Shown: positions 57,209 through 59,108 of the stretch, in pieces
Numbering within the stretch: position 1 is the stretch's first letter
Layout: every line of letters starts with the position of its first letter
Assembly (NCBI RefSeq): GCF_016903815.1
Contig: NZ_CP069973.1
Direction: 5' to 3' (one strand)
DNA length: 64,000 bases
DNA from: Escherichia coli
Lineage (GTDB): Bacteria > Pseudomonadota > Gammaproteobacteria > Enterobacterales > Enterobacteriaceae
The notes under the pieces: generated by a model
What the model was told of the DNA's origin: nothing
The model's input: only the letters and a program-made list of their open reading frames with translations
Database searches by the model: none
Program-made: the position numbers and the translations under genes

Positions 57209-57808
57209 ATGCTCTATATCTTTGATTTAGGTAATGTGATTGTCGATATCGACTTTAACCGTGTGCTGGGAACCTGGAGCGATTTAACGCGTATTCCGCT
57301 GGCATCGCTTAAAAAGAGTTTTCATATGGGGGAGGCGTTTCATCAGCATGAGCGTGGGGAAATTAGCGACGAAGCGTTCGCAGAGGCGATGTGTCATGAG
57401 ATGGCTCTACCGCTAAGCTACGAGCAGTTCTCCCACGGCTGGCAGGCGGTGTTTGTCGCGCTGCGCCCGGAAGTGATCGCCATCATGCATAAACTGCGTG
57501 AGCAGGGGCATCGTGTGGTGGTGCTTTCCAATACCAACCGCCTGCATACTACCTTCTGGCCGGAGGAATACCCGGAAATCCGTGATGCTGCTGACCATAT
57601 TTATCTTTCGCAAGATCTGGGCATGCGCAAACCTGAAGCGCGAATTTACCAGCATGTTTTGCAGGCAGAAGGTTTTTCCCCCAGCGATACGGTCTTTTTC
57701 GACGATAACGCCGATAATATAGAAGGAGCAAATCAGCTAGGCATTACCAGTATTCTGGTGAAAGATAAAACCACCATCCCGGACTATTTCGCGAAGGTGT
57801 TATGCTAA
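57209..57808 (+). CDS. yihX: HAD-family alpha-D-glucose-1-phosphate phosphatase YihX (199 aa)
   Basis: Track ORF 57188..57808; the internal start gives [21 protein letters not shown]... with the HAD motif DxGNV. Confidence 0.9.
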
Positions 57809-58674
57809 AAACCATCCATGAAAAAGCCAGGTATCGTACCCGTCCGCTATGGGCCTGGCTGAAACTACTCTGGCAACGCATTAATGAGGACAACATGACC
57901 ACCCTGGCAGGTAATCTTGCCTATGTGTCGTTGCTCTCATTAGTGCCGCTGGTTGCCGTTGTTTTTGCGCTTTTTGCCGCTTTTCCCATGTTCTCAGACG
58001 TTAGTATCCAACTGCGTCACTTTATTTTTGCCAACTTTCTCCCTGCCACTGGCGACGTTATCCAGCAATATATCGAACAATTTGTTGCCAATTCCAACAA
58101 GATGACCGCCGTTGGGGCGTGCGGGCTGATCGTCACGGCGTTATTGTTGATGTACTCCATCGATAGCGCGTTGAATACCATCTGGCGCAGTAAACGAGCG
58201 CGACCAAAAATTTACTCGTTTGCCGTGTACTGGATGATTTTAACGCTGGGGCCGCTGCTGGCAGGGGCCAGTCTGGCGATCAGTTCCTATTTGCTCTCCC
58301 TGCGCTGGGCGAGCGATCTCAATACTGTCATCGACAATGTGCTGCGTATTTTTCCGCTGCTGTTGTCGTGGATCTCCTTCTGGTTGCTGTACAGCATTGT
58401 TCCTACCATCCGCGTACCTAACCGCGACGCGATTGTCGGCGCGTTTGTCGCTGCACTCCTGTTCGAAGCAGGAAAGAAAGGTTTCGCGCTTTATATCACC
58501 ATGTTCCCGTCATATCAGCTCATTTACGGCGTGCTGGCGGTGATCCCCATTCTCTTTGTTTGGGTCTACTGGACATGGTGTATCGTCTTGCTTGGCGCGG
58601 AAATTACTGTCACTCTCGGGGAATACCGCAAATTAAAACAAGCTGCTGAACAAGAAGAAGACGACGAACCATGA
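57802..58674 (+). CDS. yihY: YihY/BrkB-family inner membrane protein (290 aa)
   Basis: Translation [47 protein letters not shown]...; overlaps the yihX stop by 7 nt. Confidence 0.9.
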
Positions 58675-59108
58675 TTGCATTAATTCAACGCGTAACCCGT
58701 GCCAGCGTCACCGTGGAGGGAGAAGTGACGGGTGAAATTGGCGCGGGACTTTTGGTGTTATTGGGTGTCGAAAAGGATGACGACGAACAGAAAGCAAACC
58801 GTCTGTGCGAGCGTGTACTCGGCTACCGCATCTTTAGCGATGCCGAAGGCAAGATGAATCTCAACGTGCAACAGGCGGGCGGCAGTGTACTGGTGGTTTC
58901 CCAGTTTACCCTTGCCGCAGATACCGAACGGGGGATGCGCCCAAGTTTCTCCAAAGGCGCATCACCGGATCGCGCAGAGGCGTTATATGACTATTTCGTC
59001 GAACGCTGCCGTCAGCAAGAGATGAACACGCAAACAGGACGCTTCGCTGCGGATATGCAGGTATCGCTGGTCAATGATGGCCCCGTGACATTCTGGTTGC
59101 AGGTATGA
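58671..59108 (+). CDS. dtd: D-aminoacyl-tRNA deacylase Dtd (145 aa)
   Basis: Translation [55 protein letters not shown]...; ATGA overlap with yihY. Confidence 0.95.

Follow-up and report, generated by a model that had tools for sequence, protein, structure and literature searches.

Two start/stop overlaps with plausible translational coupling, and most likely an independent fabY start, in the yihX-yihY-dtd-fabY operon of Escherichia coli

We analysed a stretch of 64,000 nucleotides (nt) of Escherichia coli chromosomal DNA (hereafter the window; RefSeq assembly GCF_016903815.1, contig NZ_CP069973.1) with a focus on four contiguous plus-strand genes, yihX, yihY, dtd and fabY (formerly yiiD, alias madA), which the K-12 RefSeq annotation shows overlapping by 7, 4 and 4 nt at yihX/yihY, yihY/dtd and dtd/fabY. 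This segment is the already catalogued E. coli operon yihX-yihY-dtd-fabY, in which two of the three overlaps are real but commonplace and the phenomenon is already known. An initial annotation had taken the three junctions for a chain of tightly coupled translation units. We arrive at a different reading, to which we assign a probability of roughly 0.72: in this known four-gene operon, yihY and dtd are largely fed by ribosomes coming from the gene upstream, while fabY starts independently at position 59153. Under such a scheme, transcription would begin at a conserved promoter just 5′ of yihX and end at a hairpin past fabY, yihX would recruit ribosomes through its strong Shine–Dalgarno (SD) element, and translation of yihY and dtd would largely be supplied by ribosomes finishing the preceding gene, either by termination-reinitiation or by local hand-over. 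Initiation of fabY would then be a separate event, at a ribosome-binding site of its own after a 44-nt spacer. Our data show the coordinates, the support for each start codon, the conservation and how frequent overlaps are in general, whereas the promoter, the terminator and most of all the coupling are inferred. The coordinates of all features are collected in Table 1.

The dtd/fabY junction is where the proposed chain fails. The letters of the ATGA that had been described there are present, with the ATG at 59105 assembled from the A of the last Val codon of dtd (GTA) and the TG of its TGA stop, but as the start of fabY this codon probably does not hold, and the dtd stop most likely does not overlap a genuine fabY start. 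In the PGAP annotation of E. coli strain 7/2 (NZ_CP023820.1), which is identical in sequence, fabY starts at 59153 and encodes 313 residues, leaving a 44-nt spacer after the dtd stop. Tetracycline-inhibited ribosome profiling (TetRP) places the start at the same codon: the yiiD row of Table S2 of that study gives a shift of +48 to an ATG opening MYHLRVPQ, in the class '1. new site', and the signal in three samples is much stronger at +48 (30.1, 22.0 and 6.1) than at the old start (7.2, 0 and 0) (PMC4909307).

Related loci point in the same direction. Our comparative set consists of 80 loci surrounding Dtd homologues of Enterobacterales, Vibrionales, Aeromonadales, Pasteurellales and Orbales; these are the best of at least 583 matches and contain neither Salmonella nor the closest relatives of E. 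coli, and counts of loci or species within the set are not phylogenetically independent. An ATG of the MYHLRVP or MFRLITP type (M[YF]xx) is present in all 70 loci scorable for fabY, and in 66 of the 70 it stands 15–124 nt past the dtd stop, with a median of 44 nt. In 30 of the 70 loci the dtd stop coincides with a start-like codon whose frame runs open into the conserved fabY ATG, and in 25 of them this codon is ATG; in the other 40 a start at this position is impossible, as the frame is either shifted or closed. The 16 codons separating ATG 59105 from ATG 59153 are open in the window, and across loci they are poorly conserved and carry indels. Upstream of the conserved ATG stands the purine-rich element AAGAGAGAG, most columns of which are invariant in an alignment of 20 Enterobacteriaceae sequences from 20 genera. 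The SD duplex at 59153 has an energy of -5.1 kcal/mol in the window, equal to the median of -5.1 over the 70 loci, while that of ATG 59105 is weak at -3.4 kcal/mol, with G-rich pairing that immediately adjoins the ATG.

We conclude that translation of fabY most likely begins independently at 59153, an ATG that lies 44 nt past the dtd stop and has a purine-rich ribosome-binding site of its own, and that ATG 59105 is probably not the main initiation site of fabY. The dtd/fabY overlap is thus most likely an annotation artefact of an outdated start codon, which vanishes once the fabY start is corrected to +48, and for this reason the three junctions do not make up a coupled chain. The ATGA found there would be a by-product of the letters GTA TGA followed by a 16-codon open stretch. 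The published boundaries of the FabY GNAT domain, residues 19–162 in the 329-residue numbering (PMC8666670), also speak for the later start, since the domain opens only at about residue 19 of the long form; neither operon structure nor the start codon is addressed in two papers on YiiD/MadA, this one among them.

A fully coupled operon, in which fabY starts at ATG 59105 and all three downstream genes are made by reinitiation at stop/start overlaps, has to be weighed against this evidence. The frame is open from 59105, K-12 RefSeq gives the 329-residue protein, and the loci that keep an in-frame ATG at -4 (negative distances denote overlaps) belong mostly to the Escherichia/Citrobacter/Enterobacter group. 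The signal at the old start, although small and confined to one of the three TetRP replicates, also lies on this side and counts as a point against our own reading. We nevertheless consider the full chain quite unlikely given the profiling result at +48, the PGAP start, the poor conservation of the extension beside the conserved downstream ATG and SD, and the weakness of the SD at 59105.

The same region is predicted to fold into a stable RNA hairpin that straddles the dtd stop and presents AUGA as its apical tetraloop, so that the AUG in the loop would be reachable only by a ribosome that had just melted the stem, as the full chain would have it. In a 90-nt folding window the hairpin has a minimum free energy of -36.6 kcal/mol (z = -3.49; none of 200 shuffles was equally stable), and it is identical in K-12. 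No terminator-like U-tract was found on its 3′ side. We also considered the long hairpin as a conserved Enterobacteriaceae element and rejected this candidate: RNAalifold returned only nine consensus pairs at -6.2 kcal/mol, and the 20 genera share no more than a short inner stem, in which one pair covaries. Because of this weak consensus we claim no conserved RNA element here, and the hairpin could serve mRNA processing or stability, or mask ATG 59105. Two forms of FabY may exist in E. coli and its close relatives, a main 313-residue protein from 59153 and a minor 329-residue one from the AUG at 59105, a possibility that we judge very unlikely. If it were true, the AUG in the hairpin loop would be reached only by ribosomes unwinding the stem while they finish dtd, and the output of 329-residue FabY would be strictly proportional to the translation of Dtd.

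At the other two junctions, by comparison, the upstream stop does overlap a genuine downstream start, as judged from equivalog profiles and the comparative loci. The 7-nt overlap reported between yihX and yihY is in the sequence, with the yihY ATG lying 4 nt upstream of the yihX TAA, and the 4-nt ATGA shared by yihY and dtd is likewise borne out. The annotated starts of yihY and dtd are well supported, both by full-length NCBIfam equivalogs and by the 80 related loci. The BrkB-family equivalog NF002457 covers YihY residues 2–289 and TIGR00765 aligns from residue 18; Pfam by itself does not decide the yihY start, its domain beginning at residue 29. Ahead of the conserved N-terminal segment, most Enterobacteriaceae loci offer no other candidate start of yihY than the ATG at -7 or -4. 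Dtd is matched by the TIGR00256 equivalog over residues 1–145, and its N-terminus, MIAL(I/L)QRV, is conserved and profile-aligned from residue 1.

Two other start codons were tried and rejected. An internal in-frame ATG of yihY (57895–57897, Met32) has a better SD than the annotated start (GAGGA, -6.0 kcal/mol versus -3.9 kcal/mol), but three results argue against it as the main start: the two profiles begin to align upstream of it, the segment that precedes it (W.KLLW.RI..D) is conserved in related loci, and Met32 itself is Leu in many genera. This codon falls outside the ±60-nt range covered by the TetRP study. For yihX, GTG 57188 was rejected since the glucose-1-phosphatase equivalog NF006991 aligns from ATG 57209; no SD precedes the GTG (+0.9 kcal/mol), and the strong one stands before the ATG instead.

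The order yihX-yihY-dtd-fabY is kept in most Enterobacterales sampled. Among the 66 loci in which yihY precedes dtd, the two genes overlap in 47, by 4 nt in 44 of these, and the others mostly have gaps of 0–38 nt. Where both yihX and yihY are present (49 loci) they overlap in 32, with distances of -7 in 20, -4 in 5, -1 in 5 and outliers of -22 and -43; gaps of 48–174 nt occur in Yersiniaceae, Hafniaceae and Budviciaceae. A short gap replaces the overlap in about one third of related loci. The gene yihY is not at the locus in Dickeya, Pectobacterium, Brenneria, Photorhabdus, Xenorhabdus, Providencia and Morganella, and where it is missing dtd directly follows yihX at gaps of 7–189 nt, with a clear AGGAG-type SD before dtd. 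In turn, Vibrionaceae, Aeromonas, Pasteurellaceae and Orbales keep yihY-dtd and have no yihX at the locus. The most widely conserved linkage of the cluster is that between yihY and dtd, which offers a mild hint on the function of YihY.

The case for coupling at the first two junctions comes from how poorly yihY and dtd are equipped to recruit ribosomes themselves. Among the operon genes only yihX has a strong SD, an AAGGAGG whose duplex with the anti-SD (aSD) has an energy of -11.6 kcal/mol; the corresponding values are -3.9 kcal/mol for yihY and -1.9 kcal/mol for dtd, and at the yihY/dtd junction there is no usable SD upstream of dtd. Translation of dtd is nonetheless moderate, with a published translation efficiency (TE) of 0.80, an aSD value of -0.88 and an open reading frame (ORF) distance of -3 (PMC5318159). 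Across the comparative loci the SDs of dtd are weaker where its start overlaps the preceding gene (median -4.3 kcal/mol) than where there is a gap (median -6.1 kcal/mol; Mann–Whitney p = 8e-5, uncorrected for phylogeny), and reporter assays have shown coupling in four of five native E. coli ATGA pairs (PMC6728339). Taken together, the weak SDs of yihY and dtd, the TE of dtd, the weaker SDs at overlaps and the reporter pairs make termination-reinitiation the most likely route by which yihY and dtd are translated. Translational coupling from yihX to yihY and from yihY to dtd is a reasonable and plausible reading of these features, while the term 'tightly coupled' overstates what sequence alone can show.

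Several points weigh against our reading, and some of them would fit an account in which the overlaps are neutral by-products of compactness and stop drift, free 30S subunits initiate yihY and dtd de novo on A-rich, open mRNA, and coordination takes place only at the level of the transcript. The TGA that ends yihY is there because the Met-Ile codons of dtd contain it, such that any upstream ORF in that frame ends at this point; in all 77 loci scored here, dtd opens with ATG or GTG and continues with AT, and YihY ends in a variable tail, acidic and of low complexity, that runs to that TGA. The start region of dtd is A-rich and, by prediction, unstructured (z = +1.0), which could permit de novo initiation independent of an SD. 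Gaps in place of overlaps in about a third of loci also suit a neutral origin, as does bioBF, an E. coli ATGA pair with a weak SD that is not coupled at all (PMC6728339). At the other junction, the 7-nt overlap demands that the terminating ribosome move 4 nt backward, a geometry less studied than -4 and -1. The composition of the comparative set and the shared ancestry of its loci, described above, belong on this side too, as does the fact that the promoter and terminator calls given below rest on consensus or conservation. Against the neutral account stand the retention of -4 in 44 of 66 loci over several orders despite a varying tail length, the difference in SD strength between overlapping and gapped junctions, the TE of a dtd with essentially no SD, and the predominance of coupling among the ATGA pairs tested in reporters. 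On balance, we regard a purely neutral origin of the overlaps as doubtful and retain the reading in which yihY and dtd largely depend on upstream ribosomes.

Expression of the four genes as one unit agrees with both the sequence and the RegulonDB transcription unit yihXY-dtd-yiiD, to the extent that PMC4421995 cites it. In 54 of 60 related loci a TAnAGT hexamer occurs in the 60 nt that precede the yihX ATG, against a chance of 0.067 per random 60-mer, and the extended form C[GT][CT]TA[ACG]AGT is found in 44 of the 60, at -34 to -40 from the yihX ATG with a mode of -36. The TACAGT of the window is thus probably the -10 element of the operon promoter, which would put the transcription start site near 57185 and leave a 5′ untranslated region of about 24 nt. 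At the other end, a terminator-like hairpin with a T-rich tail begins 7 nt after the fabY stop and is probably the end of the operon; terminator-like sites are as numerous in the region as shuffling predicts, so the call is suggestive only. A consensus promoter scan found at threshold no plus-strand site inside yihX-fabY, which is weak evidence, the conserved TACAGT upstream of yihX also being missed by the same scan. An RpoS SELEX peak listed near yiiD was set aside as not relevant, its position being between yiiD and yiiE.

These observations also bear on whether the cluster is one expression unit at all. Internal promoters, for example before dtd or fabY, would make the overlaps irrelevant to regulation, and it could be argued that fabY, with its own ribosome-binding site behind a 44-nt spacer containing a stable hairpin, lies past a possible processing or boundary site, and that the genera without yihY, in which dtd follows yihX at 7–189 nt, show the cluster to be evolutionarily modular. 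However, RegulonDB, as far as it is quoted in the source above, gives a single four-gene unit, the scan returned no plus-strand promoter-like site inside it, no terminator-like U-tract follows the hairpin at the dtd stop, and a proteomics study assigns a common operon id to yihX, dtd and yiiD and gives similar protein levels for YihX and YiiD (247 and 216 in the authors' units; PMC6544118). Division into separate units is accordingly unlikely. The co-expression that the initial annotation proposed for a membrane protein, a tRNA proofreading enzyme and an acyltransferase-like protein is consistent with the RegulonDB unit in the form cited, with the -10-like hexamer, with the terminal hairpin and with the lack of internal plus-strand promoter-like sites at the scan threshold.

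A second stable hairpin is predicted (57162–57201, z = -3.4), which pairs the SD of yihX with an upstream CCUUUC. Since the putative -10 hexamer lies inside its 5′ arm, transcripts from the yihX promoter would be made without this arm, whereas read-through transcripts from csqR would have the yihX SD masked. Promoter-dependent unmasking of the yihX SD is a speculative possibility that follows from this arrangement.

The gene identifications made at the outset were correct, with NCBIfam equivalogs for YihX, YihY and Dtd (NF006991, NF002457 and TIGR00256), all scoring above their cut-offs, and Pfam matches for FabY (PF00583, GNAT, and PF09500, YiiD_C). The YihX profile NF006991 covers all of residues 1–199 of 199. 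K-12 MG1655 has the same gene order as the window (csqR, yihX, yihY, dtd, fabY), and the 3.1-kb segment 57100–60200 has a match in 5425 of 5426 complete E. coli genomes. The window is base-for-base the same as strain 7/2 over 40100–64000 and differs from it in its first 40.5 kb at three places, all of them rRNA positions. Our literature search found no paper that names yihX, yihY and dtd together. In twelve E. coli genomes at 100% identity among the matches listed, the segment 57100–60200 aligns as two pieces, and the annotation under the match includes an IS200C tnpA, which implies that those strains have roughly 0.7 kb inserted somewhere within the operon or next to it.

Table 1. Features of the yihX-yihY-dtd-fabY segment, in window coordinates
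Feature	Position	Strand	Description
TACAGT, -10-like hexamer	57173..57178	+	Probable yihX operon promoter element, based on conservation
yihX	57209..57808	+	Alpha-D-glucose-1-phosphate phosphatase, HAD family; first operon gene
yihX/yihY junction	57802..57808	+	ATGCTAA; yihY ATG 57802-57804, yihX TAA 57806-57808; 7-nt overlap
yihY	57802..58674	+	BrkB/YihY-family inner-membrane protein, PF03631
yihY/dtd junction	58671..58674	+	ATGA; dtd ATG from 58671, yihY TGA 58672-58674; 4-nt overlap
dtd	58671..59108	+	D-aminoacyl-tRNA deacylase; PF02580 match
RNA hairpin, predicted, stable	59082..59132	+	Straddles dtd stop; AUGA is the apical tetraloop
ATGA at dtd stop	59105..59108	+	dtd TGA 59106-59108; start of the 329-residue fabY ORF in the K-12 annotation
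AAGAGAGAG, purine-rich SD-like element	59137..59145	+	7 nt upstream of the conserved fabY ATG
fabY (yiiD/madA), supported start	59153..60094	+	313 residues; GNAT and malonyl-acyl carrier protein (ACP) decarboxylase hot-dog domain
Terminator-like hairpin with T-rich tail	60101..60134	+	Hairpin 60101-60124, 10 pairs, 6 of them G-C; consensus scan; probable operon end, suggestive only

Beyond fabY, the window carries a low-GC insertion (36–45%; 60100–62400) that is not in K-12, and at least 80% of the segment 60100–64000 is found in 329 of 5426 E. coli genomes. The single ORF of the insertion, of 617 residues on the plus strand (60471–62324), has no Pfam, NCBIfam or PDB match, and on the identical insertion sequence PGAP places a partial pseudogene and a separate 'transposase' coding sequence. 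Copies of insertion sequences (IS) elsewhere in the window are IS200C at 23844–24302 and 40595–41053 and IS1397 at 19107–20455.

The sole actionable point of this analysis is that the K-12 reference still has a fabY (yiiD/madA) start that is contradicted by both profiling and comparative data. For residue numbering of FabY/MadA, for dtd deletions and for constructs that express fabY, the ATG 48 nt downstream is the one to use, and a deletion that takes away the final 30 nt of dtd, or the 44-nt spacer, may disturb the ribosome-binding site of fabY or the hairpin. The biological weight of the junctions themselves is small, since short start/stop overlaps and the coupling that likely goes with them are standard in bacterial operons.

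The window itself illustrates how ordinary such overlaps are. Four of its 38 co-directional pairs of coding sequences in the PGAP annotation overlap, namely mobB/mobA (-19), yihX/yihY (-7), yihY/dtd (-4) and pepQ/yigZ (-1), and a survey of 720 genomes gives about 15% overlapping pairs among co-directional neighbours in most prokaryotic groups (PMC6728339). The 19-nt overlap of mobA and mobB, on the minus strand at 21025–21043, is the longest co-directional one in the window. The junction at pepQ/yigZ, named at the outset as a similar case, is present as TGATG; the overlap is 1 nt for the annotated ATG 10836 and would be 4 nt for a start at the in-frame GTG 10833. The convergent 4-bp overlap of tatD and rfaH, cited in the same breath, exists as well (TTAG, 2875–2878, tatD ending at 2878 and the minus-strand rfaH at 2875), and is irrelevant to translational coupling. 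Further overlaps follow just beyond the downstream end of the window, at fdhE/fdoI/fdoH (-4 and -4), frvR/X/B and rhaA/B. By this measure, the pattern in the yihX operon is not strikingly unusual beyond chance.

Among known systems, the closest are the ATGA/TGATG pairs hyfHI, astDB, ydbH/ynbE as well as menDH of Huber et al. 2019 (PMC6728339), beside which yihY/dtd is a textbook ATGA pair within one transcription unit and yihX/yihY is of the same type with a slightly longer overlap, its -7 geometry being less common than -4 and -1. As in the hyfHI-type pairs, the downstream gene at both junctions relies on a weak intragenic SD. The difference is that coupling in the hyfHI-type pairs was measured in reporters, whereas yihX/yihY and yihY/dtd are known here from their sequence; in addition, removing the SD cut reinitiation in four of five tested E. 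coli pairs (PMC6728339), while the dtd junction has almost no SD to begin with. Consecutive small overlaps are also found in the housekeeping genes of the dcw/mra cluster, where the ORF distances are ftsL -3, murE -13, murF -3, mraY -6, murG -3, ddlB -7 and ftsA -3 (Burkhardt et al., PMC5318159), so that two or three overlaps in a row are routine. The dcw genes form one pathway, unlike those of the yihX operon, which have no known common function and comprise a sugar phosphatase, a membrane protein, a tRNA proofreading enzyme and a malonyl-ACP decarboxylase/GNAT protein. Finally, yiiD/fabY resembles genes whose start codons the longest-ORF rule misassigned and initiation-site profiling later put right: TetRP moves the start downstream, relative to the annotation, in about 150 E. 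coli genes, this one included (Nakahigashi et al. 2016, PMC4909307). For fabY, K-12 RefSeq retains the long form and a minor second initiation site may exist.

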